Virus record (IMG/VR): IMGVR_UViG_3300028920_000050
Span: 37,395-101,394 of that record
DNA: 64,000 nucleotides
Strand: one strand, 5' to 3'
Source: a virus
Shown here: piece after piece, positions 3,994-52,546 of the stretch
Layout of the letters: every line of letters starts with the position of its first letter
How positions within the stretch are numbered: position 1 is the stretch's first letter
The notes under the pieces: model-generated
Told to the model about the DNA's origin: nothing
Database searches by the model: none
What the model saw: only the letters and a program-made list of their open reading frames with translations
Made by a program: the position numbers and the translations under genes

Positions 3994-4890
3994 TTATTTT
4001 TTTAACTTGCGGGTAATGGTGCGCTCATAATTTTCGGTAACCTTTTTGATATAATCAGTACAGGATTTTTCAACCTGTTTCAATTTATCTTTACCGATTT
4101 TGATCTTTAAAATGTCAGATACAATGTCAACAGCATTTTCAGCCAATAACATTTTACAGATCATTTCTTTTTGATCATTAGATTTTTTGTTTTCCTTTTT
4201 GATACTGTCTCGGTCAATTTGTTTTGACATTTCACTGATCATTTTTTCACGTTCTAAAATTGCATTGTGCTGTTTATCAATTTTTTCACGTTCTTTATTA
4301 TCGGTGATTTTTGCCGTATTTGGTAATAGATTTACTTCTTTTTTTGCCTGATCTATTCCGAGCTTGCAAATATACTTTTTATATTTGCTATCATCTTTTA
4401 AATTGCCGTTACCACTTGCAATATAGGTGATCAGCTTTTTGATGCTATCATCATTTAACTGATTTTTCTTGACCGTCTTTGCTAAGTTCATTAGAACCGA
4501 GTACGGTACATTTGTACCAAGTTCAATCTGAAAATTAGCAAAATACCCGGCTGAAATTAATTTCATTACTGCATTTTGTTTGACATGTAAACGGCTGAAA
4601 TATTCTTTCCAGTATTCATCCACGACCGAAGATATTGACGGTTTTTTGGAATAATTGTCAGGATTTTTTTTATAATCTGTTAACTTTTCTGTCAACAGAT
4701 CAGCAGTAAAATTATGTAACATGGCATGGTACACGATTTTACTTGCATTTTCATATTTTGACATGGTAATGATCTTTTTGAATTGATCATTACGATTGTT
4801 AACTACCGTTAACATATTGCCCATGTCAATAGATGATTTAAAGATTTTGTCCGTGTCGGATTTTGATACGATTGTTTGATTTTTATTCAT
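3994..4890 (-). CDS. Hypothetical K-rich protein, probable first early gene
   Basis: 298 aa ORF, visibly more AT-rich than neighbours, with own promoter and terminator. Confidence 0.8.
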   Translation of the reverse strand: MNKNQTIVSKSDTDKIFKSSIDMGNMLTVVNNRNDQFKKIITMSKYENASKIVYHAMLHNFTADLLTEKLTDYKKNPDNYSKKPSISSVVDEYWKEYFSRLHVKQNAVMKLISAGYFANFQIELGTNVPYSVLMNLAKTVKKNQLNDDSIKKLITYIASGNGNLKDDSKYKKYICKLGIDQAKKEVNLLPNTAKITDNKEREKIDKQHNAILEREKMISEMSKQIDRDSIKKENKKSNDQKEMICKMLLAENAVDIVSDILKIKIGKDKLKQVEKSCTDYIKKVTENYERTITRKLKK

Positions 4891-5004
4891 AATATTTTTC
4901 CTTTTATTTTAATTTAGTTAAAATGTAATATCTTACATTCTATATAAAAAATAAAATGTAATATTACATTTTTACAGGATCACAACATGCTGATCCTATT
5001 CTTA

Positions 5005-5032
5005 ATTGTATCATGATTATAGTTTTTGTCAA
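5005..5032 (-). promoter_or_regulatory. Sigma70-type promoter for 3994..4890
   Basis: TTGACA-N16-TACAAT with extended -10 TG; flanked by palindrome copies at 5052-5063, 4957-4968 and 4924-4937. Confidence 0.7.
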
Positions 5033-5247
5033 GTTTAATTTTTATCAATTTTGTAATATTACAAAAATCCGATACAGTAACCCGGAACCGTGATCCCGGT
5101 ACTGGAGATTGAAGGACACCCCCGACGCCGTCAGAGGGTCCGGGTCCCTATGTACTTGAAGCTGAGAACTTTAAAGGATTTAGATTTTAAGTTAGCAATA
5201 CATAAACATATCCAACACACTTTAAAACACACTTTGCAGCACACTCT

Positions 5248-5730
5248 TACTACTACTCTTATATAGGGTAATGTTAGAGGGCTTTCGGGCCTGGCTCCCG
5301 CCGGTTTTTAAAGCTGTATTATAGGAGCAAAAAATAATTCGGATCTTTGGAAATACAATATATAGCGTGCTTTGAACAATACCTGCTGCATAGAACGCAC
5401 GTAATACAGGATCTTTGTACTACTCTTACTATGTGTACTGTTAGTGTACTTGTTGGGCCGTTCTCCCGCCCGTTTTTAGATCTTGACACTTAAACAATAA
5501 TACAATGTAAGACCTTACATAATAGGTATGTATACCTATAAAGTATGTCTAAGTGTCAAGTGTTGATCGCTGTCATGATGTGCTTAGAGATCCCGATTAT
5601 ATGCGTAATACCACTGTGATCATGTTAAATAATAGGGTAGATCTGCTGTGGATCTGAGGGCAATACACTACTACATAGGTCTCTATATAGGGGGCATGTA
5701 GAGGGGTTTACCCGTATTCCCCCGCCCTGG
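5248..5730. repeat. Three imperfect ~60 bp direct repeats plus nested inverted repeats
   Basis: TACTACTCTTA...TGTTAG...GGGCC...CTCCCGCC.GTTTTTA at ~5248-5310 and ~5418-5478, degenerate copy ~5666-5730; CTTGACACTTA (5482-5492) / TAAGTGTCAAG (5550-5560) inverted pair. Confidence 0.6.
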
Positions 5731-5791
5731 CTACACAGAGGCTTTCTATGGGACGTTCTCAGGGAGGGTCTGCATATTGGGCCTACATACA

Positions 5792-5837
5792 GAAAAACCC
5801 TCTGTGCTGAAGCCGTATAAACAGCACAGAGGGTTTC
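5792..5837 (-). terminator. Rho-independent terminator ending the late gene block
   Basis: 15-bp stem AAACCCTCTGTGCTG / CAGCACAGAGGGTTT ending in a U-run on the minus strand. Confidence 0.75.
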
Positions 5838-5873
5838 ATGAGTGTACCCATAATTAGGAGGAACTTAAATAGC

Positions 5874-6275
5874 CTATCTGCCACGCACCTGTCTTAGAAA
5901 TATCTGGTTTCCCTGTGGATTACGTTTACCTATCCTTGGCTTACGCTTACCTGTAGATAAGAAGCTTTCACCAAACCACCCCTCCATTTTTTTGATATAG
6001 GCAGTTCGGCTTTTTATATGAAGCTTCTTTTTATACATGCTTATAGCAAGGTTGGCTTTCTGAGGATCTGTTAAATGCGGATTATAGTAGTACTCGTGTA
6101 TTCCCTTGGTGTGTATACCAATATCCTTTCTCAGAGCTTTTACTTTTCCAAGTAACTTTGCTCTTTGATCCCCGCTTAATTTTGCACGTGCCCATCTGTG
6201 GGCTTTATTTAGAACGTACTTTCTGCCCCGTATAAGCTTAGTCATTCCTACACGGAGCAACTGTTTTTTAGGCAT
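5874..6275 (-). CDS. Basic protein, shared N-terminal motif family
   Basis: LRVGMTKLIRGRKYVLNKAHRWAR. Confidence 0.8.
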   Translation of the reverse strand: MPKKQLLRVGMTKLIRGRKYVLNKAHRWARAKLSGDQRAKLLGKVKALRKDIGIHTKGIHEYYYNPHLTDPQKANLAISMYKKKLHIKSRTAYIKKMEGWFGESFLSTGKRKPRIGKRNPQGNQIFLRQVRGR

Positions 6276-6280
6276 TAATA

Positions 6281-6733
6281 TTATGCTTTTCTTTTACGGA
6301 CAGCTATTCTGTGACCAAGACGATTAATTGCTATAGATCCCACAGTGAGAGTAGCCAATGCTGCAATTCCTTTTCCTGATGTCATCAAACCGGCAGATCT
6401 TCCTGCTATCCTCATACTTCTCTGTGCTTTCCTGTACATGGAAGCGCCTTTTATTAAACTGCCTCTTTTAAGCATCCGTTTGGCTTCACCACTCATACGT
6501 ACTGCACGTTTTAACTCAACATGGTGCATAATACGTGCTCCGCTTTCCACTGCCAAATGTGCTCCGCCAGTAATAGCACCAATAGCTCCAACACCTGCAG
6601 TTATCCCACCTGCAAGCTGTCGGCCCACACCAGCACGTTCCCATCTGGATGTTTTACCTAATTTATAGGTTCTTCCTTTTACTGTTTTGGTCATTCCATG
6701 TTGAAGCTTTCGTCTTTGTTTCATACGAGCCAT
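6281..6733 (-). CDS. Basic protein with glycine-zipper segments, shared N-terminal motif family
   Basis: LQHGMTKTVKGRTYKLGKTSRWER followed by GGITAGVGAIGAITGG. Confidence 0.8.
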   Translation of the reverse strand: MARMKQRRKLQHGMTKTVKGRTYKLGKTSRWERAGVGRQLAGGITAGVGAIGAITGGAHLAVESGARIMHHVELKRAVRMSGEAKRMLKRGSLIKGASMYRKAQRSMRIAGRSAGLMTSGKGIAALATLTVGSIAINRLGHRIAVRKRKA

Positions 6734-6735
6734 AG

Positions 6736-7083
6736 TTAAGCCCTCCTTCTCTTTATTTTCTTTTTTTCTTTGATAACCATTATAAAACTGGCAATAGCAC
6801 CAAGGCTTGTGGCTATCTGCTGTATATAATCAAATATCATTGATACTATTGACTTCTTCTCAGCTGTTGTATTGGTAACACGTGAGTCCCTTCTTGGGCG
6901 CCGAGTTGTCCGATCTGCGGTTGCAGGAGCAGATCTCCTGTATACAAATGTGGAGTTATCAGTTTTAGCTTGTATGGAGAAATTAACAAGTTTCCTTCTT
7001 ATAAATGAAAGTGCAGCAAGAACAATAAATACAATACAGACTGTTGTTAATACTTTTAATTTAATATCTTTTATTTTACGCAC
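6736..7083 (-). CDS. Small two-TM membrane protein
   Basis: Hydrophobic VLTTVCIVFIVLAALSFI and IATSLGAIASFIMVI segments with basic termini. Confidence 0.7.
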   Translation of the reverse strand: MRKIKDIKLKVLTTVCIVFIVLAALSFIRRKLVNFSIQAKTDNSTFVYRRSAPATADRTTRRPRRDSRVTNTTAEKKSIVSMIFDYIQQIATSLGAIASFIMVIKEKKKIKRRRA

Positions 7084-7618
7084 GTATCCTCCTTCTCCTC
7101 GGCCTTCTGTAATTGGAAGCAGTAAGGTGAGTAGCTATTCCACGTTTCCGCAGATTTTCCATTGTACTTGGTTTCGTATCAAAAGATATACGAGATCCAG
7201 GCTTTAAGTCTCTATTCATCTGTGCAGTAATTAGAGTATTTACTACACCGAGCCTTCTTTCAGAAGCAGCTCTCTCCCGCTTTCTTGCTGACATCTTAAC
7301 CAAGAGTCCACTTACAAAAGCACCTGCACTTGTAGCAACTAAAGCCTTGTGTACTTTATAAGGTGCTTTCTTAAGTAACTTTGTTTTCTTACTGAGTGCT
7401 AAATAGCTGGCAGCTAGACCCAAACCAACCATACTCATGCGTTTTCCTAGACGGCCACGACTACTATAATCAAAACCTTCTATGTTCCTCTTACCTGTAC
7501 GTTCCCACCTATAGTTTTTATTCAGTTCATAGGTTATTCCGCTTACTGTTTTCTGTTGACCTATTTTAGCCTTTGCTTCTTTGGCATTTTTTCTGGCTCG
7601 TCTCTTGGTTGTTGGCAT
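7076..7618 (-). CDS. Basic protein with hydrophobic segments, shared N-terminal motif family
   Basis: AKIGQQKTVSGITYELNKNYRWER; two Gly/Ala-rich hydrophobic stretches. Confidence 0.8.
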   Translation of the reverse strand: MPTTKRRARKNAKEAKAKIGQQKTVSGITYELNKNYRWERTGKRNIEGFDYSSRGRLGKRMSMVGLGLAASYLALSKKTKLLKKAPYKVHKALVATSAGAFVSGLLVKMSARKRERAASERRLGVVNTLITAQMNRDLKPGSRISFDTKPSTMENLRKRGIATHLTASNYRRPRRRRIRA

Positions 7619-7636
7619 GCACTCCTCCTTAAATTA

Positions 7637-7680
7637 AATGAAAGAGATAAATGTAAGAACTTACATTTATCTCTTTCATT
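7637..7680. terminator. Long inverted repeat with palindrome variant at its core
   Basis: AATGAAAGAGATAAATGTAAG-AA-CTTACATTTATCTCTTTCATT. Confidence 0.65.
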
Positions 7681-7703
7681 GTTCTGTCATTGTCGCAGTG
7701 ACG

Positions 7704-7892
7704 TTATGACATCTTGACAGGGCCGATACCGTTGTGTGCCTTCGGTGCAGGATACTTTCCTTTGTATTTGTCAATCTTATCTTTTGCACCGGGAGCCTTA
7801 GACGGACCAATCCCATTACGGGCAAGCCCTGGCCGGCCAACCTGGTGTTTCGCACCTTTGTTCTTCGTGTTTTTTGGAAATGTTGCTGCCAT
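7704..7892 (-). CDS. Small basic protein with duplicated NGIGP motif (62 aa)
   Basis: AGGAGG SD before MAATFPK; ARNGIGPSK and AHNGIGPVK repeats. Confidence 0.7.
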   Translation of the reverse strand: MAATFPKNTKNKGAKHQVGRPGLARNGIGPSKAPGAKDKIDKYKGKYPAPKAHNGIGPVKMS

Positions 7893-7920
7893 AGTTTTCC
7901 TCCTGTTTAATATATTAAAC

Positions 7921-8379
7921 CTATAGTAGTCCGAGTTCTTTTTGAACTCGTTTACGTACACGACCTAGAGCTTCCCTTGTACGTTTAGCCTCAGGTGTAT
8001 TGACTGTACCATGTCGTTTGTGTGCCTCGTACACACTACTTAATTTCATATATCTTTTTCTTACTCCCGGATTTACTCGTCTAATCCCCTGCCTGAAAGA
8101 TGACTTGGCCCTTACAGTAACTTTACGAGTAGACAATATAGCAAGTGTAATAAAACCAGCAGTAATAGCTGCACCCTTGGCATACGCTTTAAGCCTCATT
8201 CTTCTTCTGTATTTTTCATAACTTATGGTTGGACCGGAAAAATATGCAGACTCTTTTAGCGGAACCTTTATATAATCTCTTTCCCATCTTGAAGTACGAC
8301 CAAGTTTATACCTCTTTCCTCTAACTGTTTTTGTAGCCCCTGGTCTTATACGTTTTTGATCATACTTCTTTCTTGCCAT
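7921..8379 (-). CDS. Basic protein with TM-like segment, shared N-terminal motif family
   Basis: IRPGATKTVRGKRYKLGRTSRWERDY; GAAITAGFITLAIL. Confidence 0.8.
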   Translation of the reverse strand: MARKKYDQKRIRPGATKTVRGKRYKLGRTSRWERDYIKVPLKESAYFSGPTISYEKYRRRMRLKAYAKGAAITAGFITLAILSTRKVTVRAKSSFRQGIRRVNPGVRKRYMKLSSVYEAHKRHGTVNTPEAKRTREALGRVRKRVQKELGLL

Positions 8380-8398
8380 AATGAAATCCAGATATTAA

Positions 8399-8833
8399 TT
8401 ATTTATTTCTTTTTCTTCGTTTATATGTAGAGTGTGCGATCTTTGTAGTAACAGCTGTACCTAATGCTACAGCCACACCTTTCTTACCGTGTTTAGCAAT
8501 AGCTTTGCTTAGGGGCTTACTGGCTTTTCGTATAGCTGCTCCTGCTCTGCTTATTGTTTTACTTGCTTTACCTGCCTTATGAGAACTACTCTCTACTCTT
8601 TTACCGAAGCGTTTAACCTCTTCGCCAGCTTTCTTCCCCGCAGTTTTAAAACCGCGGTCTACTGCTTTGTTTAGACCTTTAGCCTTACCGACTGCTCCTG
8701 TCTTTTGTACCTTGACCCACCGCACAACTCCTTTGCGGATCTCTGTCAAACGGAGCATAGCACCAGCTGCTCCTTTCTTCATAGCACCGATTTTCTGGCC
8801 GGCAGCTTTCTTTATTCTTTTCATTCTTGCCAT
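8399..8833 (-). CDS. Very basic K/A/G-rich protein, possible divergent family member
   Basis: KIGAMKKGAAGAMLRL...VRWVK; C-terminal GVAVALGTAVT. Confidence 0.75.
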   Translation of the reverse strand: MARMKRIKKAAGQKIGAMKKGAAGAMLRLTEIRKGVVRWVKVQKTGAVGKAKGLNKAVDRGFKTAGKKAGEEVKRFGKRVESSSHKAGKASKTISRAGAAIRKASKPLSKAIAKHGKKGVAVALGTAVTTKIAHSTYKRRKRNK

Positions 8834-8855
8834 TTGTTATCTCCTGTTTTTTATA

Positions 8856-9764
8856 TTAACGCTCTCTTCGCTGATACTCATAATCACGAAGAGCACGTTC
8901 AGTGTAATACCGTCTTTCCATAAGTGTTTTACGTATCCTATAGTATGTAATGCCAGATAGAATACCTAAAGCAACTCCGTAAGTAGGTCTCTTTTGTATA
9001 AACTTAAGACCAGATAAAGCAGAGTTATTAAAATGATATGTAAATCGTTTTGCTCCCCGGAACTGAAATCCCATCTTATTACCTATGGGAACCTTCTTCG
9101 CCAAAGCCTGAGCCATAGTTTTAGTTCTGGTTATTTTCTGTGCTCTTTTTATCTGATTTAGATGTAATGACTGCAGTGGCTTGGCTACCCTGGCTGTCAT
9201 GTTAGATATTCCCTGATGAACTGTTTTCCAAGGTTTAGACTTACGTATTCTATCAAGCTCAAGAACTTTAACAAGATTATTACGGAAGCCACCAAATCCT
9301 GTACCTCTCCTTCCCTTCCGTCCAATACTTACAGCTGCACCATAGATACTACCAACTACCCACAGACTCCTCTCCCTCCTGGTTAAAGCCGCACGCTTGA
9401 ACATATAATCTTCACGTAATTCTGATTTTGTTTTTCCGTGGTATGTCTTTACAGCAGATACTCTCTTTAGTCCCTTAACTGCTTCTGGATTACCTGGAGT
9501 TTCTTTGAAGAAATCTGATTTTGGATTTTTATGAATAAAACCTGACCTGTCCTCTGCTACACTTACAAGATCCTGCTGTTCTTTTGGACGGACAATAGGA
9601 GGTGCATGATCCTCCATTACTGGAGGTTTATTATTTGGAAGCCTGTAGTCACGTTCCCACCTGTGGGATCTCCGCCTGAGTTTGTACCTTAGACCTTTTA
9701 TAAATCTTATTGTTCCCAGCCTGGGTTCTTCTTTCTTTTTTGTTCGCTTCCTACCATTTGACAT
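8856..9764 (-). CDS. Basic 302 aa protein, shared N-terminal motif family
   Basis: PRLGTIRFIKGLRYKLRRRSHRWERDY; two hydrophobic Gly-rich segments. Confidence 0.8.
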   Translation of the reverse strand: MSNGRKRTKKKEEPRLGTIRFIKGLRYKLRRRSHRWERDYRLPNNKPPVMEDHAPPIVRPKEQQDLVSVAEDRSGFIHKNPKSDFFKETPGNPEAVKGLKRVSAVKTYHGKTKSELREDYMFKRAALTRRERSLWVVGSIYGAAVSIGRKGRRGTGFGGFRNNLVKVLELDRIRKSKPWKTVHQGISNMTARVAKPLQSLHLNQIKRAQKITRTKTMAQALAKKVPIGNKMGFQFRGAKRFTYHFNNSALSGLKFIQKRPTYGVALGILSGITYYRIRKTLMERRYYTERALRDYEYQRRER

Positions 9765-9879
9765 ACAGACTCCTTGCTAATGTAAGATCTTACATTCAGT
9801 TAATAAAATGGGGTTCTTCGTGCAGGACAGCGTTATATAATACGGATCGTCTTACTATTATTATAATGTAAAATCTCAA

Positions 9880-10914
9880 TTATTTCAAATTAAATCTCCT
9901 CTTTATAATCGAAGATCCCTCTTTTAGCGTATGAAATCCACCATATACGCTCTGGTAATTTACAATAAAATCAATATACCTGTGCCTAAGCTTCTCATCT
10001 ATGGGCCTGTTCAAGTAGTCATTTATGATAAATGATATATCATCTATGTACCCCACCTCTTTATAGTTAACAGACGGTATCCGATAACCAAGCCCAAGCG
10101 GAGTAACTACCGGCAAATTACTGAAGTACAGTACTTTCTTATTACTGAGTATGGCTTCAGCCAGGGAGGATGAATTGAAAGACACAACTATCTGTGCTTC
10201 TCGTATGTGTGTAAAATGATTTGCATTTTTATTAAACACAACTCGCTTGTCTTTAATAGGCACATAGTCATAAGTGAATCCACGCTTTTTATTATAGGCA
10301 CTTGGATGTGGTTTCACCACCAGAATAAAATCAGTATAAATATTTTTTATTATATTAAATACTGTGCGAACCATATCATTTGCTCTGTAAGGGTGTCCAC
10401 CAACAGATGTAATTGATTTATCTGTTGATTTCTGTAGTGGAAAATAAATAAGGGGTACTTTGTAGTTAGCCAAGGTCCCGTTCTTGTCATTATTATGTGC
10501 TACCCAATGCAGTTCAAACAAACTCACAAGCTTGTTTACTTTATACGGATAATTATTGAATGTCATATCCGTAGTATGACTGTTGAACATAGACATAGGA
10601 GCAAGCAGAGATCCACAATACTTATTATGATCCTGCCTGTCAATAAACTGATTGAACCTGAATGGTGACCTTTCAACAAATAGCATATTTCTGTAAGTAC
10701 TCTTTTTCATCAAGTCTACAAAAGATGATGGTATATTTCCTTTCTGATTGAAGAACTTTTTATAACACAAGTATCTATTCTTCTTCCCCTTATCCTTTAA
10801 ATAAATAGAATAGAAGTCATCAGTTGATACGTGTTCTATTTTTAAACCGAGTGGTTTAAGGTACGTATCAATTATATTGAACTCACAATTATAGATATTA
10901 GAATATACTTTCAT
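9880..10914 (-). CDS. KpsS/KpsC-like capsule-synthesis glycosyltransferase (putative beta-Kdo transferase)
   Basis: IYFPLQxxxDxSI, LVVKPHP and VVSFNSSSLAEAILxxKKV motifs of the Capsule_synth family. Confidence 0.8.
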   Translation of the reverse strand: MKVYSNIYNCEFNIIDTYLKPLGLKIEHVSTDDFYSIYLKDKGKKNRYLCYKKFFNQKGNIPSSFVDLMKKSTYRNMLFVERSPFRFNQFIDRQDHNKYCGSLLAPMSMFNSHTTDMTFNNYPYKVNKLVSLFELHWVAHNNDKNGTLANYKVPLIYFPLQKSTDKSITSVGGHPYRANDMVRTVFNIIKNIYTDFILVVKPHPSAYNKKRGFTYDYVPIKDKRVVFNKNANHFTHIREAQIVVSFNSSSLAEAILSNKKVLYFSNLPVVTPLGLGYRIPSVNYKEVGYIDDISFIINDYLNRPIDEKLRHRYIDFIVNYQSVYGGFHTLKEGSSIIKRRFNLK

Positions 10915-11945
10915 AAGCCTAACTTCTTAACAAGAAAAATCTTAAGATCTTTTCTTGCTGTAAAATTGTTAAAGAAAGACATCTCATTGATTATAAAATA
11001 AACATACTTGTTGTACGCTTCAGTATCTATATCTGTCATAAGATAGTCTCTTATAACCATAGCATTTTCATTTAGAAACCTCCCACCCGCATAATTCCAT
11101 GACGGTACTCGGTATCCTATATCATTACAGTCCACTACAGGCATGTTTGAGAAATATAATATCTTTTTATGAAGAAGTGCTGCTTCTGCTAAAGCAGATG
11201 AATTAAAACTCACAACTACTTTGGCTGCAGTGAGCAGTGCATAGTGTGATATGGAACTTGTAGTTATAACACGATTATCATCAAAATCAAATATATATTT
11301 ATAGTTTCCTCTATGGTACGGATGCTCACGCACTACAATAACAAAATCATTGTACATACGTGCAAACAATTTATAGATGACATTTATCATCTCATTAACA
11401 GGATAGGTCTCTGCTCCTCTGGATCTGAGTGATATATCCTGTGGTAATTGTAGCGGAAGGTAAACAAGGTTTCTTGTTTTTGGTATGTCTCCTGTGTCTT
11501 TATTTAAACCTAACCAGTGCTTCCTGAACCTTGACACAGTAGCATTCATGTCAGCTTTATATGTGAACTTATTGAACTTATGTAAATTACTATAATTCAC
11601 AAAAGAACTTATGTTGGCAAGCATTACTCCGCAGTTCCTGGAATTAATATTATCATCAGTTCCCTGTTTAAAACGAAATGGTGGTTTCTCAATAAAAAGT
11701 AAATGTCTAAAATCATCGAGCCTGAAAATCTCCCTGAAGTGATCGTAGGTCTTTACTTTAGTTCCATGCAGGAAGGTCTTACCCATTACATACATGTTTT
11801 CTTTGTCCTTGGCAGCTCTCCTATACAAATCCTCCCCCGCCGGCGGACGTTCAATGTCAACAGGCAACTTCAGTCTCTTAACATTACGTTCTAAGAGAGT
11901 GGCCTCCTCACTCTCTGAGTATATCATTATAAGCTTTTTCTTCAT
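10911..11945 (-). CDS. KpsS/KpsC-like capsule-synthesis glycosyltransferase, paralog 2
   Basis: VYLPLQLPQDISL, IVVREHP, VVSFNSSALAEAALLHKKI; clearly homologous to the adjacent 344 aa gene. Confidence 0.8.
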   Translation of the reverse strand: MKKKLIMIYSESEEATLLERNVKRLKLPVDIERPPAGEDLYRRAAKDKENMYVMGKTFLHGTKVKTYDHFREIFRLDDFRHLLFIEKPPFRFKQGTDDNINSRNCGVMLANISSFVNYSNLHKFNKFTYKADMNATVSRFRKHWLGLNKDTGDIPKTRNLVYLPLQLPQDISLRSRGAETYPVNEMINVIYKLFARMYNDFVIVVREHPYHRGNYKYIFDFDDNRVITTSSISHYALLTAAKVVVSFNSSALAEAALLHKKILYFSNMPVVDCNDIGYRVPSWNYAGGRFLNENAMVIRDYLMTDIDTEAYNKYVYFIINEMSFFNNFTARKDLKIFLVKKLGL

Positions 11946-12520
11946 TCAGCCACCTGACACACATACAACCTGTACGAATAATGTCTAGGATTAGGATGTC
12001 TCTGATTTATTTCGTATCTCTTTATGAGACCAATCCTGTTAACAAGCTCAAGCATGCTGTCAACAGTTATATTAAAATGTTTATGATAATGATTTCTCAT
12101 CTTAGTTTCATTGTCAGGATGTGAGAATATAACAAGACCACCTGGTTTAACACTGTTCTTAAATAAGAATAAAGTGCTCTCAAGTGATCTATCAAGATGT
12201 TCAATAGTTTCGAGAGAAACAACAGCATCGAAACCACCATTACCTATCCTTCCCTTTACCTTATTTAGATCTACAACATCATAAGCTATGGCTTTACTAT
12301 GATTGAAATGCTTAATAGCGTGACTTATTGCTTCCTTGGAGTTATCAATACCAACAACACTTCTGGCTGTCTCAGCAAGTATTGTGCTTCCGTATCCTAC
12401 TCCACATGCAGCATCAAGTACGTGCATGCCTCTACAAAATGAGCTGGCAATATAATACCTCTCCTTGTGTAGCTTCTCTATTTTTTCAAGTGCTGTTGCA
12501 TCCTGTCTTTCTCTGGCCAT
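11942..12520 (-). CDS. Class I SAM-dependent methyltransferase (glycan-cluster type)
   Basis: HxxRY, VLDAACGVGYG, FDAVVSLETIEHL. Confidence 0.9.
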   Translation of the reverse strand: MARERQDATALEKIEKLHKERYYIASSFCRGMHVLDAACGVGYGSTILAETARSVVGIDNSKEAISHAIKHFNHSKAIAYDVVDLNKVKGRIGNGGFDAVVSLETIEHLDRSLESTLFLFKNSVKPGGLVIFSHPDNETKMRNHYHKHFNITVDSMLELVNRIGLIKRYEINQRHPNPRHYSYRLYVCQVAE

Positions 12521-12521
12521 G

Positions 12522-13535
12522 TTACCTCACTCTCATATCTGCCTTGATCAGATCTCGACCATCATAAAACTTTGTACCAGTAAACGGCTTAAAAGTATAG
12601 TGACCCATGATCTTCATCTTTCCTTTATTCCTGTGTATAAAAGCACGTGTAAGTTTCCTGTCCTCTTCTGTCTCCCCCGGAAGTTTAAACATAAAAGAAG
12701 CGCCTACAGTTAGATTTATACTGTTACAAATATCGACTACTCTCTGATGATTTGCTACTGTAGTTCGTTTATTGAGAAGTTTAAGCATACGGTCACTACC
12801 ACTCTCCGCCCCGAACCTGACACTGCTAAACCCCATTTCCTTCATCATAATAGCAATTTCCTTATCGAAATTACTAGACCGAATAAATCCTCTGAGTGAA
12901 AAGCGTCTATTATAATCACGGAACATCCACATCTCGTGGATTTCCCGCAACCTCTTCTTATTAAATACGAATAAATCATCAAGTATGTATATTTCTTTTG
13001 CTTGAGGTTCTGTTCTTCTTATGAACTCTACCTCATCAATAAAGTAATCGGAGCTGTGAAACCTGACCTTTTTCCAAAAAACAGAACTGCTACAAAAATG
13101 ACAGTCATAGGGACACCCTCTCGCACTGATAATAGGAATAGACTTACCACACTTTCCTCTTATTGGGTATGGTAAATCATCTATGTTATCAATCTGTCCC
13201 GCCAAGGGATTAAATCTGCCATCAATTAAAGATTGAAACGGAAGTTCACCTTCTCCCTTTACAACATAATCAAAGCCTATATTATCGATCTTGGGCCACT
13301 GAGTTCCTTGACCACCTACACACACAGGTATATCTGTACTATTTAATATTTCATAAGCCTCCTTCATTCCGTGGTCATTGGTATACAGTCCTATCAAATC
13401 ACAGTTATTAAGTTTATTCCTATCCTGTACAATGGTTATCTTTGCTCCCTTACTGTAAGCAGCAAGGTAGCCTAAACCTAGAGGGTATTGAGATACTGGT
13501 CTCTCTCCCCCACACATGTACAGTTTTATTTTCAT
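12522..13535 (-). CDS. B12-binding radical SAM protein
   Basis: YPLGLGYLAA, VGG, VVKGEGE, ARGCPYDCHFC (CxxxCxxC), DDLF, FGAESGS, LPGET. Confidence 0.92.
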   Translation of the reverse strand: MKIKLYMCGGERPVSQYPLGLGYLAAYSKGAKITIVQDRNKLNNCDLIGLYTNDHGMKEAYEILNSTDIPVCVGGQGTQWPKIDNIGFDYVVKGEGELPFQSLIDGRFNPLAGQIDNIDDLPYPIRGKCGKSIPIISARGCPYDCHFCSSSVFWKKVRFHSSDYFIDEVEFIRRTEPQAKEIYILDDLFVFNKKRLREIHEMWMFRDYNRRFSLRGFIRSSNFDKEIAIMMKEMGFSSVRFGAESGSDRMLKLLNKRTTVANHQRVVDICNSINLTVGASFMFKLPGETEEDRKLTRAFIHRNKGKMKIMGHYTFKPFTGTKFYDGRDLIKADMRVR

Positions 13536-14017
13536 TTTGTTGCTTTTAGTTCAATGTCACACTCACGGCAATTAATAAGTTCAGTTACCTTAAAACCATT
13601 CACATTAAAAAACTCAACTAAAGATTTAGATGTATAGCCCCAATAATGATAGTAGTTCTCTCCCTTTCTCTGCCACCCAAAAAAAGCAGCCATAGCATGT
13701 TCAAAGTTACTGGCCTTTACAAATGGAGACTTCCCTGGCATGAGTAACTGCTTGGCATGGAACTCAAGATTAGGAACAATAACGTGTATAATACCCTTGG
13801 GCATGAGTACACGTCTCCATTCTTTTAGCGTGATGATAGCTAAGTCAGGAGTTAAATGCTCCAGAAAATGACGAGCATATATCTCCTCAAATGTGTCTGC
13901 TTCTTCAGGAATCTTCCACGCAGGATAGGGATACTCAACGTGTAGTGCTTTAGGATCTATATCAAGGTGCTGGTATCCCTCTCTCGGTTTCTTCCCTGAA
14001 CCTATTTCAAGTTTCAT
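13532..14017 (-). CDS. SAM-dependent methyltransferase (Methyltransf_11-like)
   Basis: LEIGSG, YARHFLEHL, EWRRVLxPxGxxxVxVPN. Confidence 0.88.
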   Translation of the reverse strand: MKLEIGSGKKPREGYQHLDIDPKALHVEYPYPAWKIPEEADTFEEIYARHFLEHLTPDLAIITLKEWRRVLMPKGIIHVIVPNLEFHAKQLLMPGKSPFVKASNFEHAMAAFFGWQRKGENYYHYWGYTSKSLVEFFNVNGFKVTELINCRECDIELKATK

Positions 14018-14289
14018 CCTATTGCTCGTTTAAGTATTTCCTTAGCTTGAGATTTGTTTGCGCAGATGTATTTATCGTTATAACTTTTTCCGTCCCCGAC
14101 CTGCAGACCTTTCTTGTTCATCTTGGGCGGAATGTAACCAGAGACTGTAGCTATAACTCCGTTCTTCGCCTTATCAATGCTGAAGTTACTGTGCTCCATA
14201 GGTCGCTTTGTAACTCTCGGTATCTTTATACTTGGAGAGATTTTACTGATACCTGCCGAAACTCCTCTGCTCATTTTTCTTTTAGCCAT
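14014..14289 (-). CDS. Small basic hypothetical protein
   Basis: 91 aa, AGGAGG SD. Confidence 0.7.
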   Translation of the reverse strand: MAKRKMSRGVSAGISKISPSIKIPRVTKRPMEHSNFSIDKAKNGVIATVSGYIPPKMNKKGLQVGDGKSYNDKYICANKSQAKEILKRAIG

Positions 14290-14310
14290 TTTGTTTTCCT
14301 CCTATTAAAT

Positions 14311-14340
14311 AAGGAGAGCCAAGTTTCCCTGGCTCTCCTT
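14311..14340 (-). terminator. Hairpin / probable terminator
   Basis: AAGGAGAGCC / GGCTCTCCTT stem downstream of the SH3 gene. Confidence 0.5.
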
Positions 14341-14378
14341 TGTGATTAGTACCTTATTATATTTTTATTATTGTAAAA

Positions 14379-14840
14379 TCACTCCAACTGAACATACCCA
14401 GGCACGCAGGTAATCCATCCGGTTGATCCATTTTGGAGTTTAACTTCATACTTTTCTACGGTGTACTCAAGTATTTTAAGTACAGCCCCAGGTAGCATAA
14501 AGCCTATTTTGTTTTTATCATTTTTAGCAGGGGAGCCTCTTATAACACAACCTTCACCATTTATAGTACCGGTCTCACCGGTCTTATCAACGTCAAGGTA
14601 TGTACTATAAACCCACCCCGTCTTACCTATCCACTTACTTCCTTTTTCAACGGTCCCCTTATAATAACCGATCTTCTCACCGACAACTTCAAACTCCTCA
14701 CCGGGAGCGGCGGTCCTGATTAACTCAGCACCATTGTCGGGAGCGTTACGGATATTAATATGCTTCACGATCCGCAGGTTCTCCGTATAAAGGAAGCTTG
14801 TGAATAAAATAAGCACAATGAATGTAGTTATTTTTTTCAT
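14379..14840 (-). CDS. Secreted bacterial SH3-domain protein
   Basis: MKK + hydrophobic signal peptide; INIRNAP...GWV and VIRGSP...GWI SH3b-type motifs. Confidence 0.8.
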   Translation of the reverse strand: MKKITTFIVLILFTSFLYTENLRIVKHINIRNAPDNGAELIRTAAPGEEFEVVGEKIGYYKGTVEKGSKWIGKTGWVYSTYLDVDKTGETGTINGEGCVIRGSPAKNDKNKIGFMLPGAVLKILEYTVEKYEVKLQNGSTGWITCVPGYVQLE

Positions 14841-14986
14841 CTTTTTTTCCTCTTGTTGGATTTTTTATGAGGACTTTTGTATCCACTCGCATGAGCTGCC
14901 CTCTGGATTTGAAGTGCTTTTGCTTTTGTTTTGAAAGGGCCACGTGACCCCCAATACCATCCGTTTGCTTTTTTAACTACCGGCAT
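14837..14986 (-). CDS. Small basic phage protein (49 aa, MPVVKKANGWYWGSRGPFKT...), absent from ORF track
   Basis: Manually translated; TAATG overlap upstream and ATGA overlap downstream. Confidence 0.7.
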   Translation of the reverse strand: MPVVKKANGWYWGSRGPFKTKAKALQIQRAAHASGYKSPHKKSNKRKKR

Positions 14987-15174
14987 TATTTCATTCTCCC
15001 TATGGGTCCTCTCCCTTTTCCCACACCAAGTCCCATTCCTCTCCCCCTACTCCTTATTTTACCTCCGGGGCAACACTCCCATCTGTGATTTTTATTTAAA
15101 CGATATAACTTATTATTAATCCTTTTAGTAGTTCCTACTTTAAGTCTAATATCTTTGTGTTTATTTCTAAGCAT
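14986..15174 (-). CDS. Minimal member of the shared N-terminal motif family (62 aa)
   Basis: LKVGTTKRINNKLYRLNKNHRWE followed by an RG-rich tail. Confidence 0.75.
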   Translation of the reverse strand: MLRNKHKDIRLKVGTTKRINNKLYRLNKNHRWECCPGGKIRSRGRGMGLGVGKGRGPIGRMK

Positions 15175-15186
15175 AACTTCTCCTTA

Positions 15187-16914
15187 CTATTTTACTCTCT
15201 CATATACTGATGTCGGAGCACGAGAAAGCTTTCTACCAAAAGCATCCCTCTCATCTCTCACGACTGTTTGAACTGGACCTCTACGTCTGAAATCATTAAC
15301 TACCAGTTCTTCATTCTTGATCTCTTCTACCTCTCCCATTTCTGGAATATAGGCTGCCCAGGTCATAAGGCTGAGACCATCAAAATAGTCATCGTGTGCA
15401 CCCTTGCGCTCCGGGTGGGCGCAGACAATATATTGATTTTTAGTTTTCTTCTCGATAGTTACTACTTCCTTGGCAAGTTCCTTTACCTCTTTATCTACTC
15501 GTGCTGTTCTACTCCACGGTATCCATACACGTCCGCCCTTCATTTCAACAATAAGGTTCTTGGCAAGTTTACTCTTCATGGGTATGCTGTATACAATGGG
15601 TTCCATCTCCATTTCGTATTCATACTTATTTACAAACCTGTCACCTATGGCATCCCCTACACCAGTACTATCGTATGCCATCTTTATAGGTATTCCACGT
15701 GACTCTCTTATAAAGTCATCAATGACATCACAGATTTCATAAAACTGAGTATCATAGTCTGTTCCTCGCCAAGAATAAATACCTAACACCTGCTTAGGTG
15801 GGGCAATAGTAAGATCTACTCTCAAGTTCCAGTGCTTAGTTCCTATAACAAGTACTGTCTTGTCGTCCTTCTTGGCAAAGTCCAAGCCGAAGTACAGTTC
15901 TGCTCCACGCTTAACTACATGCCACCCAAGTTCAAGCTCTGTTTTCTTGTTCTTGTTAAGCATCTTGTCATCAATAGCCATCCCGCCTTCAAACAGCCAT
16001 TTAAGACAGTAAGACTTCTGGAACTCGTCACTGTCCTCACCAAGTTCTTTCTTCTTTTTATCTATGTACGCTTTATAGTATGGGTTCTCGCGGATACCAT
16101 CTTTGTAGTCAGACACAAAGGTACATCTTTTATATCCCCTCACTTTCTTTCTTCGGGCCTCTCCATTGGTAATAAGCTTCCAGAACTTGTTCTTTGTTTC
16201 TCCCGCCACACCAAAAAAGAACTCAGAAGCGTTCCACGCAGCACCCATAGGTGAAGCATCAGCATCATAACGAGCAGTGTCTATGTCTTGCGCTTCATCA
16301 TATTGAAGTACTTTAAACGTACCAGACTCTACTTTTGCCTGTGGGTGCAGTGAGTACCACTGCATAATAGATCCGTTTGTAAGTTTTATCTTGTCATTTA
16401 TTTTACGCTTGCCTACGTTGATAGCTTTATCAGCCATTATCATCTCAGCATATTCAGTCTCAAGGATCTTATACGTACCTTCCCACACTGCAAGTGCTTG
16501 GTACTCGATGTTAGACATGTGACCTATCCACACACCGTTATTTTTTGGAAAATCAGGATTATAAAACTTAAGAAGTGGTTTGTGTACTGTATGAAAAAGC
16601 TTTGCTATGATTGGAATGAACAGCATAGCTGCGGCATCAAGGGACCTGAACAGCTCAGTCTTACCTCTCTGCCTTGAGAAAGAAATACCAACAGATGCCG
16701 GCTCATCGTTAAGCAGGATCTCAAAGAACCTGTAAGCTATCTTTTTTTGGAGGGGGTAAAGATAAGGAAGTCCACTGAACTGCTCTGTTACCGTGACAAG
16801 TCTGTCACATATCTCTCCAAGATTGAACTTCGTTATTTTAATTCGATCTTTTAAGACATATTGTTCATCATCAGTCAGTGCTTCTTTCATGTCAGCTACA
16901 TCAGATTGCTTCAT
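15187..16914 (-). CDS. terL: Terminase large subunit
   Basis: SRQRGKTE Walker A, YDEAQD Walker B, GLDFAK / DSTGVGD / HDDY RNaseH-like nuclease motifs. Confidence 0.92.
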   Translation of the reverse strand: MKQSDVADMKEALTDDEQYVLKDRIKITKFNLGEICDRLVTVTEQFSGLPYLYPLQKKIAYRFFEILLNDEPASVGISFSRQRGKTELFRSLDAAAMLFIPIIAKLFHTVHKPLLKFYNPDFPKNNGVWIGHMSNIEYQALAVWEGTYKILETEYAEMIMADKAINVGKRKINDKIKLTNGSIMQWYSLHPQAKVESGTFKVLQYDEAQDIDTARYDADASPMGAAWNASEFFFGVAGETKNKFWKLITNGEARRKKVRGYKRCTFVSDYKDGIRENPYYKAYIDKKKKELGEDSDEFQKSYCLKWLFEGGMAIDDKMLNKNKKTELELGWHVVKRGAELYFGLDFAKKDDKTVLVIGTKHWNLRVDLTIAPPKQVLGIYSWRGTDYDTQFYEICDVIDDFIRESRGIPIKMAYDSTGVGDAIGDRFVNKYEYEMEMEPIVYSIPMKSKLAKNLIVEMKGGRVWIPWSRTARVDKEVKELAKEVVTIEKKTKNQYIVCAHPERKGAHDDYFDGLSLMTWAAYIPEMGEVEEIKNEELVVNDFRRRGPVQTVVRDERDAFGRKLSRAPTSVYERVK

Positions 16915-23841: not shown

Positions 23842-24237
23842 TTAAATAAAGTTACGCACCACCTTACAGGTGATCGTATGTATTTCATTATTCTGTACAT
23901 ACAAGTTTATGTATGTGCCATCAAATGTTATATTTATAACGTGCGGAATCTCTGGTCCTACAATATCCCAAGTTTGATAATCGGGATTGGTTGCATCTAC
24001 ATGTGCTACTACTAATTTGTATTGCAGATATTTTTTAAGTGTTGGATCTTCAATATAGACCCACCACTCTACTGACTTATTGAGAGCGACTTCAAACTTA
24101 TCGACAAGAGAGTTTACAGAAGCATTTATATTTACTTCAGACTTCTGACTTACCTCCTCCTCGATCTGTTCTTCAATATATTCCTCAAGTCCGTCAATAT
24201 GTTCGGGAGGTATTTTACCAGTTAGTATAATAGCCAT
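23842..24237 (-). CDS. Small virion protein, paralogous to C-terminal domain of 22031..23830
   Basis: VD.F/I...W.V/I......AH........W..G...VI...DG/NG..L.......K/R.VR pattern in both. Confidence 0.65.
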   Translation of the reverse strand: MAIILTGKIPPEHIDGLEEYIEEQIEEEVSQKSEVNINASVNSLVDKFEVALNKSVEWWVYIEDPTLKKYLQYKLVVAHVDATNPDYQTWDIVGPEIPHVINITFDGTYINLYVQNNEIHTITCKVVRNFI

Positions 24238-24839
24238 TAAAAACTAACCCTCCGCATCCAGCTTCTCCAGAAGATCTCCTGACTAGGATCTTTCTTTATG
24301 ATCTTCTTATATCGTATATATTGTTCCCCGTTTAGAGCCTTCATAAGTGGCCCCTCGTCCCTTGGAAGAAGCATATTGGCTGCATTTAGTGTTTTCATCC
24401 CTATTTTACCATCTACAACCAAATCTGCGTAGAGTCTGCTGTCATTGTTCCTATTAAGTGTATTTAGGGCCTCCTGAAGCACTCTGACGGCCCCTGAGAT
24501 CCCGCAATTCACTCCTGTATCAAATAACTCGTGCTGGACCTTCTCAGAGGCAACAGAGCTTAATCTGAGGGCTTCCCAATATTCCTTGTCATAAAAGGCT
24601 TCTATCTTCTTTCTAAGGAACTGGTGCTTATCGAGAACTTTACTGAACTCTTTCCATTCAGCTTTTGTCGTAAGCTTCCGCCCGTCCTTGAGCATATCAA
24701 TAGTTTTCCACCCTTCCCAGGATGGGTGCTTCTTCCGGGCAATCCCGCAGTATGTTTCGCCCCCACGATCTTTCTTGTGGTTACAGTAGCCACCTTCAAA
24801 CTTCTCGACTACTTCACCAATAATATCCTGTTTAGTCAT
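24237..24839 (-). CDS. Endolysin, glycoside hydrolase family 108 with peptidoglycan-binding domain
   Basis: EGGYxNHxxDRGGETxxGI, FDTGVNCG, LVVDGKIGxKT; AGGAG SD supports start MTKQD at 24839. Confidence 0.9.
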   Translation of the reverse strand: MTKQDIIGEVVEKFEGGYCNHKKDRGGETYCGIARKKHPSWEGWKTIDMLKDGRKLTTKAEWKEFSKVLDKHQFLRKKIEAFYDKEYWEALRLSSVASEKVQHELFDTGVNCGISGAVRVLQEALNTLNRNNDSRLYADLVVDGKIGMKTLNAANMLLPRDEGPLMKALNGEQYIRYKKIIKKDPSQEIFWRSWMRRVSF

Positions 24840-24886
24840 CTTCTTTCTCCTATTGAATAGTTTTGAAAGAAACATAACGTACACCT

Positions 24887-25330
24887 TTATTTTGAAAATA
24901 GTTTCAACAGTAATGTAAAAAATAAACCTACGGTAGCTCCTGAACCTATAGCAAGTCCAACGAGTTTCCATATTGATAAAGATACTTTCTCAAGTTTTCC
25001 TTCTGCGATAGAAACACGTTTGTCAATCTCTTTTCCGTATTTCTTCTCAGACTCCTTGAAGTCGATTAACTCTTTAGCTTGATTTGCAATCTCCTGTTCT
25101 ATCTTTATAATTTTATCGTGATCCTTCTGCCAGTTATCCTTAAGTTCTGTCATTGTATTCTCAAGACGACTTATATCATTTTTAATATTTGTATAATTAT
25201 GTTTTACTAAAGTAGCTACAGATCCTATATCCTTGCTCAGCGACCCTGTGACAGATTTTATATTTTCTCTGATGCCCTCAAACGCTGATTTGAGCATCTC
25301 ATCCATGACAACTTTAACTTCATCAGGCAA
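24887..25330 (-). CDS. Coiled-coil protein with C-terminal TM helix (holin/XhlA-like lysis accessory)
   Basis: Heptad-rich body, C-terminal IWKLVGLAIGSGATVGLFFTLLL; adjacent to endolysin. Confidence 0.6.
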   Translation of the reverse strand: MPDEVKVVMDEMLKSAFEGIRENIKSVTGSLSKDIGSVATLVKHNYTNIKNDISRLENTMTELKDNWQKDHDKIIKIEQEIANQAKELIDFKESEKKYGKEIDKRVSIAEGKLEKVSLSIWKLVGLAIGSGATVGLFFTLLLKLFSK

Positions 25331-51434: not shown

Positions 51435-52546
51435 TTTGTTATGACAAGCTCCTTACTTTTAATAACAGTATTCTGCATGTTAAGTGCAACAATTTTAAAA
51501 TATTTACTTTGTCCTTCACTTAACCCTGCATAAAAATCAGCCATAACATACTCAGGATACTGACTGTCTGTTATAGTTGTTTCAAGCGTAACACTCTCAG
51601 GCATATCCGCAATCTTCATTGGAACATGAAAGCTTTCAGTATGCGAGTACACTCTGTACTCTTTAAAATCAGCACCCCTTAACTGTGTCCAGTTAAGAAT
51701 AAGATCATTTCTAAGTTTAGTAAACTTAATTTCAATTCGCTGACTAGCCTCAATATTCCTTAATGGTATTTCATTTCCTGTTATACTATCTACAACAGTT
51801 TTGTGTCCTATAACCACTTCAGGCATAGAACCTGTTCCGTCATCAATGAACTTCTTGGCAAGATCCTGGTACTGCTTGGCCATGTCATGCCAATGCTTAG
51901 CAATACTCTGCACATCCTGACTGAGGCTTGTATCGGATGTAATTGATATCTTTCCAAGATTTACTGTTTCTTTTTCAATGACCGTAAGCTTTGACACAGA
52001 CTCAAGTAAAGCTGCTCCCCGTTTGTTACATAGGCCCATAGCCGCAAGCCACTTGACATAAACAAGTTCACTGGGGTCAAGATCTTCTACGTCATATCCT
52101 TCTTTAACCAGGGAAACCGCATCCTCTATAGCGGTATCATATACATAGTTAGGATAGAAACTGCTTACATACAGGTCTACCCCCGGTGTTCTGGTTTCAG
52201 GATTGTCGTCATTGAATATAATAGATGTTTTTGGCTGATAAAAAAGACCTGTTATGTTATAGGATATAACAATGTTAGGATCAAGGTCCACCTTCATGCC
52301 TGGGATAGCTGTGTAGTGTTTTATAAGATCAAGTAAAGTAACCACATCCGTACTCGTAAACAATACTTCATGAGTTGTCTCGTTAGTGTCACCTTCCCCA
52401 AGAATAACCTTTATACGATCAGCTGTTATTTCTACAGAAGCTTTATCTTTTTCACCTTCATACTGAAAGCGGGCAAACTTTCTCCGCTCAAACTCGTCAG
52501 CAATAGTGACCCGAAGATCGTTACGCAGTTTTTCCAAGTTTGTCAT
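51431..52546 (-). CDS. Putative head-tail adaptor with C-terminal FnIII-like domain
   Basis: LRVTIAD N-terminus; LNWT...FKEYRVY...YFKIVA. Confidence 0.6.
   Translation of the reverse strand: MTNLEKLRNDLRVTIADEFERRKFARFQYEGEKDKASVEITADRIKVILGEGDTNETTHEVLFTSTDVVTLLDLIKHYTAIPGMKVDLDPNIVISYNITGLFYQPKTSIIFNDDNPETRTPGVDLYVSSFYPNYVYDTAIEDAVSLVKEGYDVEDLDPSELVYVKWLAAMGLCNKRGAALLESVSKLTVIEKETVNLGKISITSDTSLSQDVQSIAKHWHDMAKQYQDLAKKFIDDGTGSMPEVVIGHKTVVDSITGNEIPLRNIEASQRIEIKFTKLRNDLILNWTQLRGADFKEYRVYSHTESFHVPMKIADMPESVTLETTITDSQYPEYVMADFYAGLSEGQSKYFKIVALNMQNTVIKSKELVITK

Follow-up and report, generated by a model that had tools for sequence, protein, structure and literature searches.

What role can a short N-terminal segment play when a phage places it in front of a series of strongly basic proteins that otherwise have nothing recognizable in common? 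The question is raised by IMG/VR virus record IMGVR_UViG_3300028920_000050, which is 101,394 bp in length, classed as linear and 82% complete, and more precisely by its bases 37395-101394, a stretch of 64,000 nucleotides that was analysed at full length and is referred to here as the window (all coordinates are window positions). At the end of the late block, downstream of the large terminase gene (terL), six minus-strand genes encode proteins of 62-302 amino acids (aa) that share a module of roughly 25 residues and then part ways. The module is real, specific and common to these six proteins. As to its function, a rough probability of 0.5 is assigned to the reading that it would be a docking tag for proteins that reside inside the head and are ejected from it.

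That six proteins share an N-terminal module had been proposed in a first-pass annotation, and both pattern and profile bear this out. Near the N-terminus of each protein, the module follows the pattern G-x-TK-x-V-x-G-x-x-Y-x-L-x-x-x-x-RWER; when the six N-termini are aligned, G, Y, L, R and W are invariant and the mean column identity is 46% over ~40 columns. Applied to all six frames of the complete record, which amount to 2,010 frames from stop to stop, a loose regular expression matches seven proteins only, always near the N-terminus. Because circularity was to be avoided, a hidden Markov model (HMM) was made from foreign proteins only, that is, from 77 copies of the module, all in proteins of 400 aa or more from outside the record, and searched against the same 2,010 frames. 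Five window proteins are recovered at E-values of 3e-12 to 4e-9 and the sixth (8856) at 0.016, with the next frame at 0.53. A possible seventh member, the 8399-8833 protein, is not recovered by this model and matches the loose regular expression only, leaving its membership unproven. The tagged genes, cited below by their first coordinate, are as follows in the order of transcription.

14986-15174, minus strand: 62-aa tagged protein; module at ~15073-15144; foreign-only HMM E 2.9e-12
8856-9764, minus strand: 302-aa tagged protein; module at ~9651-9725, with a one-residue insertion; foreign-only HMM E 0.016
8399-8833, minus strand: 144-aa Lys/Ala/Gly-rich basic protein; candidate degenerate module at ~8711-8797; loose regular expression match only
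7921-8379, minus strand: 152-aa tagged protein; module at ~8278-8349; HMM E 4.2e-9
7076-7618, minus strand: 180-aa tagged protein; module at ~7499-7570; HMM E 3.8e-10
6281-6733, minus strand: 150-aa tagged protein; module at ~6635-6706; HMM E 4.8e-10
5874-6275, minus strand: 133-aa tagged protein; module at ~6186-6257; HMM E 1.2e-11

The sequences that follow the module cannot be aligned from one paralogue to another (best blastp E 0.069), as had been noticed on first inspection, and their extreme richness in Lys and Arg is also borne out by isoelectric points of 11.2-12.0 and a K+R content of 23-31% in the six tested proteins. The suggestion that most of them carry Gly/Ala-rich hydrophobic helices holds in part: segments of this kind of at least 19 aa are present in three of the six window proteins tested, whereas the other three have none, and most relatives possess them as well. 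Two Gly/Ala-rich hydrophobic segments are present in the 6281 protein, the predicted body of the 7921 protein consists of three long helices with a hydrophobic segment within the first, and the 5874 protein is without one. The 62-aa protein (14986) has an Arg/Gly-rich tail (CPGG...GRGxGLGxGKGRGP) after a Cys-Cys-Pro-Gly turn, the 302-aa protein (8856) has an orthologue-like relative (P0070), and the 8399 protein has a weak tape-measure match in PHROGs (E 0.015). No match to the tagged window proteins was found in Pfam (E<=1), PHROGs or NCBIfam, and no model of these three collections matches the module itself, which agrees with the initial impression that it belongs to no named family. At the DNA level, module identity between paralogues is only ~44-68%, and the duplications behind the array are therefore old and have been kept by selection, with no recent repeat as their source.

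A word-indexed search with a profile made from the window alone found one outside protein only. An exhaustive HMMER profile search of 1.84 billion representative proteins gave 97 clusters at E<=1e-3, 23 of them at E<=1e-10; the diverse fused domains that the first-pass annotation had advised looking for were found among them. Most of the matched proteins are 600-3,100 aa in length and contain one to four module copies spaced hundreds of residues apart. The Pfam domains of 36 bearers comprise SNF2 (9), Helicase_C (8), ResIII (8), Eco57I (7), ART-PolyVal (6), N6_Mtase (4), InPase (3), Portal_Mu (2), Ntox46 (2) and WGR (2), with LPD1, LPD3, sigma-70, RadC, RNase_T and YqaJ found in single bearers. 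Judged by their domains, the large bearers are phage-type polyvalent proteins of Iyer et al. 2017 (PMC5512222). Two of the 97 matches, P0017 and P0029, were set aside as artefacts or as sequences of another kind, the former being a satellite-like repeat and the latter a tandem Cys repeat. P0029 is a secreted-looking protein of 619 aa whose nine tandem 28-residue repeats (C-P-E-G-Q-I-A-R-L-N-E-K-D-N-R-W-E-C) are flanked by cysteines and recall the latter half of the module.

When the search was repeated with a module alignment of 35 rows, further proteins appeared that start exactly with the module. In P0100 and P0101, the N-terminal module is followed by ART-PolyVal and then MuF; in P0111 and P0112, it is followed by a Pro/Gln-rich linker and then a Zeta toxin. 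Near-identical starts are seen in P0108-P0110, P0114 and P0116, which have no precomputed Pfam domain, although P0108-P0110 and P0114 resemble the Zeta group. The tag idea had been staked on the occurrence of the module with variable cargo in other phages, and such cargo is plentiful: Zeta toxin, ART-PolyVal-MuF, DarB-like giants and portal fusions. Where the module is internal, a Met lies just upstream in 25 of 74 copies compared with ~10% expected, and this enrichment suggests the fusion of once-separate units. The module of metagenomic DarB-like proteins is usually 500-800 residues in and not at the start. In the DarB-like bearers of G001-G017 (loci L002-L018), it is positioned 95-120 residues after a domain matching phrog_5143 positions 1790-1970 and ahead of the methylase-helicase part, forming a fixed sub-architecture. 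The commonest neighbour 'family', phrog_5143, was discounted, being itself a polyvalent-protein model; it is absent from the window phage.

From 145 non-redundant copies, the consensus reads L(-3)-x-[VP]-G-x-T-K-x-[VIE]-N-G-x-T-Y-x-L-N-x-N-H-R-W-E-[RL]. Conservation is 100% for G0 and W18 and 97% for G7, Y10 and R17, and it is gone outside positions -3 to +21. The flanks in large bearers are acidic or Pro/Gln-rich linkers, with D+E making up 21% of the downstream residues. Window copies possess the invariant core (G0, G7, Y10, L12, R17 and W18) together with the predicted three-stranded hairpin. They do not form a family private to the window phage, as might have been supposed, and instead represent one diverged lineage within a motif found across bacterial phyla; N6 is lost, N-x-N-H often becomes G-K-T-S, and a K/R-rich leader precedes the diverged copy. 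Within 25 residues after the module, 13-19 of the 145 copies have S-P-G-Q-x-S-L-F or Q-G-G-L-F-G (for example P0007, P0050, P0078 and P0095). Such a peptide resembles the bacterial beta-clamp-binding motif Q-L-[SD]-L-F and is absent from the window proteins.

Turning to its spread, a DNA search with one degenerate pattern for Y-x-L-N-E-N-H-R-W-E found 17 IMG/VR contigs and 13 genome contigs, all encoding the module. The genome contigs are from Planctomycetota, Cyanobacteria, Bacteroidota, Ignavibacteriota, Bacillota, Acidobacteriota, Deinococcota and Hydrogenedentes. A search with the 26-residue consensus found no true module copy in 72,556 PLSDB plasmids or 50,697 GenBank phage records, and the lack of any copy in the plasmids fits a virion-specific role. 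Every false match in the plasmids and phages (H25-H32) is accounted for by cofactor-independent phosphoglycerate mutase, which also appeared in a PDB sequence search (GRYYAMDRDKRWDRV, E 0.088) and was dismissed as a chance look-alike. Its segment (7tl8_A, 4my4_A) reads G-x-x-A-x-x-x-G-R-Y-Y-A-M-D-R-D-K-R-W-D/E-R-V and is probably a chance or convergent hairpin. No PDB chain sequence contains the module, the ESM Atlas gave no usable match to it, P0031 had no tblastn match in GenBank phages, and searches for related loci with the module alignment or P0031 found nothing.

Structure prediction agrees with the early guess of a small beta-hairpin. In the AlphaFold2 model of the 7921 protein (mfcd89efe9bf6, from a 41-row alignment), residues 11-30 have a predicted local distance difference test (pLDDT) score of ~94, three strands are formed by residues 16-19, 22-26 and 32-34, and the three long helices follow the hairpin. 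For a foreign tagged Zeta-toxin protein, the same strands are predicted (8-11, 14-18 and 24-26) with pLDDT of 86-93; residues 30-112 then score 29-43, except for residues 80-82 at 50 or above, and a confident kinase fold follows. By these models, the module is predicted to be a three-stranded beta-hairpin of ~25 residues, and the combination of a hairpin and a low-pLDDT stretch would make it a small autonomous unit on a flexible tether, followed by the cargo. When the 7921 model was compared by Foldseek with BFVD and the PDB, nothing was found at E<=0.001. Non-significant rows were returned for a 34-residue phiKZ capsid chain (8y6v_I, E 1.0, 26 columns) and for C-LytA. The choline/cell-wall-binding hairpin repeats (CW_binding_1), recognized by tandem ~20-residue G-W-x-K-x-x-G-x-W-Y-Y hairpins, were considered and rejected: there is no Pfam match in the window (E<=1) or in foreign bearers, and module copies are single, not tandem.

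The genomic company of the module was surveyed in the 17 IMG/VR records that the DNA pattern had found. Module and Portal_Mu share one ORF (open reading frame) in G005, G008 and G010, and module and MuF do so in G008 (563 aa) and G013 (777 aa), both MuF fusions having the module at their N-terminus. In G001, G012 and G015, no more than 3.5 kb separates the module ORF from a MuF match. In G013, the order is portal, a tagged 490-aa protein, a 1,867-aa protein with three modules and the tagged MuF protein. By PHROGs, 48 neighbouring ORFs include head maturation protease (3), major head protein (2), minor head protein (2), four portal families, terminases (3) and DarB-like proteins (2). Neighbours in the genome contigs include Portal_Mu, cement protein, BppU, Zeta toxin, RelA/SpoT and ART-PolyVal, with no relaxase, type IV secretion or conjugation gene among them.

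Since the module is carried by varied proteins, is tied to the portal/MuF block and was found on none of the plasmids searched, docking inside the procapsid is the simplest mechanism. The hairpin, on its flexible tether, would dock the bearer at or near the portal/MuF complex or at the inner shell; the docked bearer would then travel in the head and exit with the DNA. The window bodies appear to be cationic helical non-enzymes, often with Gly/Ala-rich hydrophobic helices, reminiscent of T4 internal or ejection proteins, and they may neutralise packed DNA, enter the host membrane at infection, or both. The motif, its significance, distribution, predicted fold and linkage to head genes and effector domains are established here, whereas we infer that the bearers are packaged and ejected, what they dock to and how the cationic bodies act. 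In a bolder version, this one 25-residue peptide, conserved over at least eight phyla and several portal types, would by itself be enough to bring any protein into tailed-phage capsids and out again with the DNA, and the window phage would use it for cationic membrane-active internal proteins rather than enzymes; this version is held only tentatively and is rather to be doubted. Apparently, the module is a widely distributed, undescribed element of a known class of phage-delivered proteins.

Several observations weigh against a docking tag. Elements from at least eight bacterial phyla carry the module in almost the same form, and it adjoins several different portal families, which together would be unusual for a tag that co-evolves with a structural partner. 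It is present on portal proteins themselves, which need no address, and 74 of 119 copies are more than 60 residues from the N-terminus. In the window, the first tagged gene abuts terL, and the main array, with a promoter-like site of its own, comes after terL, ~45 kb away from the portal. MuF and a Mu-type portal were not detected in the record, which is 82% complete, nor were the prohead protease families S78, S77 and ClpP; the S77 control matched nowhere. PF03420, the T4-type gp21 protease, has no match in the record or in the control genomes and is a weak negative. Finally, the window variants often exchange the well-conserved N-x-N-H for G-K-T-S. The original notion of an address tag is partly supported, by the predicted hairpin fold, the variable cargo and the head-gene linkage; a free N-terminus is not needed, since most counted copies are internal, and portals bear the module too.

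Conservation across phyla, portal-borne and internal copies, the remote position of the array and the undetected MuF, Mu-type portal and protease together keep four rival explanations alive. The hairpin, with its conserved K, R, H, Y and W, could act as a nucleic-acid tether that binds DNA or a DNA end, so that its bearers ride the genome into the cell. A universal partner of this kind would explain why a near-identical motif is found in at least eight phyla and beside different portal families; the motif on portal fusions, where no address is needed, and the strongly cationic nature of the window bearers are also in its favor, and the MuF-family protein gp7 of SPP1 is reported to bind DNA. 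However, a hand count on the consensus gives the canonical module no more than about +2 in net charge, and the linkers around it are acidic or Pro/Gln-rich, with 21% D+E downstream in large bearers. No copy was found in plasmid or conjugative polyvalent proteins, for which a DNA tether would be equally useful, and since the portal channel bars proteins from entering with DNA, a separate loading step would still be required; on balance, a tether is unlikely. The same absence from plasmid-borne polyvalent proteins, which face the same host targets, bears on the idea that the hairpin, once injected or newly made, docks to a universally conserved host component such as the replisome clamp, RNA polymerase, the ribosome or a membrane lipid and gathers the effectors there, with packaging achieved via other parts. 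Conservation across phyla would be expected of such a partner, and the Q-x-S-L-F-like, beta-clamp-motif-like peptide that follows the module in 13-19 of 145 copies points in this direction, but the peptide is absent from the window proteins, and tight linkage and fusion to portal and MuF would be out of place. Host docking is accordingly given a small chance.

A comparably low estimate applies to a processing role, in which the hairpin would mark or present cut sites in the head at module boundaries, and would be a removable propeptide on the small proteins in the manner of the T4 capsid-targeting sequence (CTS). Its occurrence in interdomain linkers and after the portal domain, the head maturation protease genes among its neighbours and the Met enrichment upstream of internal copies (25/74 versus ~10% expected) are consistent with this role. 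On the other hand, a folded 25-residue motif far exceeds the needs of a protease site, no conserved cleavage-like residue pair flanks the module, no known prohead protease family was detected in the window phage, and the window variants have other residues at N13, N15 and H16. With these exchanges, Asn-dependent self-cleavage (N-x-x-H, as in NPTH of FlhB/YscU) is not a general property, and it was set aside. If the window proteins are taken alone, it is conceivable that they are never packaged and are made in the infected cell as membrane proteins that control lysis, exclude superinfection or remodel membranes, the basic tag facing the cytoplasm. The K/R-flanked Gly/Ala-rich helices of three of the six window proteins and most relatives fit the positive-inside rule, the array is far from the head genes with a promoter-like site of its own, and a conserved untagged protein with two transmembrane segments (6736) is encoded inside it. 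This explanation is improbable, given that the same module elsewhere heads soluble toxins and DarB-like enzymes beside portals, that three window members lack a hydrophobic segment and that seven paralogues are many for lysis, with the endolysin gene elsewhere at 24237-24971. One further idea is that the module is the shared leader of precursors resembling ribosomally synthesized and post-translationally modified peptides, with variable cores modified by neighbouring enzymes. The layout of a common N-terminus and variable C-termini is suggestive, and a B12-binding radical S-adenosylmethionine (SAM) enzyme and two methyltransferases are encoded between the first tagged gene and the array. Nevertheless, the 'cores' of 30-260 aa are strongly basic, the leader is a folded hairpin, the module is found inside enzymes of 1,000-3,000 aa and portal fusions, and the commonest neighbour families include no radical SAM; because of this module distribution, a leader function is excluded for practical purposes, with a vanishingly small probability.

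The tagged genes are accompanied by genes without the module and by a promoter match.

14837-14986, minus strand: 49-aa basic protein without the module; phrog_31267 match at E 0.0019
9860-9888, minus strand: sigma-70-like promoter match TTGAAA-17-TATAAT (11/12), just upstream of the main array; scored on the sigma-70 consensus only
7704-7892, minus strand: small Gly/Pro/Lys-rich ORF, 62 aa from the second Met, without the module; no family match
6736-7083, minus strand: 115-aa protein without the module, with N- and C-terminal hydrophobic segments and a KKKIKRRRA tail

In a relative, the 108-aa protein P0038, homologues of the 62-aa tagged protein and the 49-aa protein are fused in reversed order, which suggests that the two proteins work together. 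A view of how the array evolves is provided by L034, a 2,969-bp metagenome contig that is syntenic with window positions 5874-8379. The 5874 protein is 45% identical over its full length to L034:131-529, and the untagged 6736 protein with two transmembrane segments is kept as well, at 39% identity over its full length to L034:1026-1391. The best-conserved array protein is the product of the 7704-7892 ORF, with 68% identity over 63 aa to L034:1724-1927. For the 6281 protein, alignment with its L034 orthologue is limited to the first 75 aa, and for the 7076 protein it covers the first 45 aa only (60% identity), both corresponding to the leader and module region. Since the alignment ends after the module in these two orthologue pairs, some bodies turn over fast behind a conserved tag. 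An upstream 295-aa tagged protein has no counterpart in the L034 comparison.

All window genes are on the minus strand, and the structural genes are arranged as follows, starting with the first in transcription order.

58869-60740, minus strand: portal
56325-58865, minus strand: 846-aa protein, directly after the portal
55339-56253, minus strand: coiled-coil scaffold-like protein
54387-55301, minus strand: major head protein
Within 52521-53897, minus strand: GT9 glycosyltransferase (heptosyltransferase-like), inside the head/tail block
24237-24971, minus strand: endolysin, ~15 kb from the tagged array
15187-16914, minus strand: large terminase (terL), the last structural-block gene before the first tagged gene

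After the GT9 gene come sheath, tube, tape measure, baseplate, fibres, endolysin, beta-helix spike and terL, and this gene set identifies a contractile-tailed phage. The gene for the 62-aa tagged protein begins directly after terL, 13 nt past its end, in agreement with the downstream location assigned to the family at first reading. Holins were considered for the tagged proteins and rejected: no holin family matches, the endolysin is 15 kb away and three members are without a hydrophobic segment. In the structural operon, terL and the portal gene stand at opposite ends, with ~42 kb between them. Next to the portal, the ORF at 60730-61191 (153 aa) has weak PHROG matches of terS-like and queuine-tRNA-ribosyltransferase-like kinds. 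Between terL and the tagged array, positions 9880-14017 encode two paralogous Capsule_synth proteins (KpsC/KpsS-like), the B12-binding radical SAM enzyme and the two SAM methyltransferases; together with the GT9 gene, this cluster may serve virion-protein glycosylation or DNA hypermodification. On the other side, the ~1 kb downstream of the array (4891-5873) is without an ORF of at least 60 aa, a tRNA or an Rfam match; the next gene, at 3994-4890, has a near-consensus promoter-like site (minus strand, 5032-5005) ahead of it, and there is a strong terminator-like hairpin at 3933-3891. Searches of the window as a whole found neither tRNAs nor Rfam families. The best matches of terL in GenBank phages are only 22-28% identical, and neither these phages nor IMG/VR, the latter by pattern search, contain a close terL relative. 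The same phage DNA is present in two marine-sediment metagenome studies, at low depth in the second.

If a folded tag that crosses phyla is true, then sequence could be used to predict which proteins enter the host together with phage DNA, be they anti-restriction enzymes, toxins or internal proteins. It would also help explain the assembly of polyvalent proteins from tagged units and could provide a portable handle for loading foreign proteins into phage heads. With respect to the window, the tagged proteins may be internal or ejection proteins of an uncultured myovirus lineage. The idea is open to bench test because cultured strains carry module-bearing prophage-like regions, namely Calidithermus chliarophilus DSM 9957 (contig NZ_KE387029.1, loci L030 and L031) and Leptolyngbya sp. 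FACHB-36 (L021).

How does the module compare with established means of loading proteins into shells? To our knowledge, capsid-targeting signals have been established experimentally only for a few model phages (T4 and P1) and are lineage-specific. The T4 CTS is ~10-20 residues in length and specific to T4-like phages; it attaches to the scaffold core, and gp21 later cuts it off after L/I-x-E. Encapsulin cargo peptides, which direct cargo into a shell of HK97 fold, are usually C-terminal, ~10 residues, extended and tethered. These peptides are alike in being short, portable and tethered but differ from the hairpin module in sequence, end, length and fold. Proteins with the T4 CTS (IPI-III, Alt and the hypervariable ip loci of T-even phages) resemble the window family as small basic proteins with unrelated bodies and a shared N-terminal element in a contractile-tailed phage; the sequences, however, are unlike, and the module is a predicted folded 25-residue hairpin that crosses phyla, is often internal and shows no sign of removal. 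In T4, the short N-terminal CTS loads internal proteins into the prohead for injection, and in P1, a reporter is taken into capsids when it carries no more of DarB than its first 30 residues (PMC9024508). DarB-like methylase-helicase giants belong to the most frequent module bearers, while P1 positions 1-48000, which include DarB and the dar genes, have no module match (best E 0.076), and the window proteins have no family match to DarB, DarA, Hdf, DdrA, DdrB or Ulx. In phiKZ, N-terminal parts of gp93 and gp162 bind the inner capsid and their helical parts go to the inner body (PMC11297242). This layout is like that predicted for the 7921 protein, a hairpin and then long helices, although the sequences are unrelated and the phiKZ proteins are cleaved by the head protease. 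Most foreign bearers belong with the polyvalent proteins, for which Iyer et al. 2017 (PMC5512222) reported fusion to portal and MuF, predicted packaging and injection, and catalogued the globular domains. A word search of that text found no description of the module, and no Pfam LPD model covers it. The SNF2/methylase dyad, ART-PolyVal, InPase, Zeta toxin, RelA/SpoT, LPD1 and LPD3 are shared between the two sets. The window proteins, in contrast, are single small bodies without enzymatic domains that have only the module in common with polyvalent proteins, and the window adds in them a new kind of bearer that is non-enzymatic, strongly cationic and partly hydrophobic.

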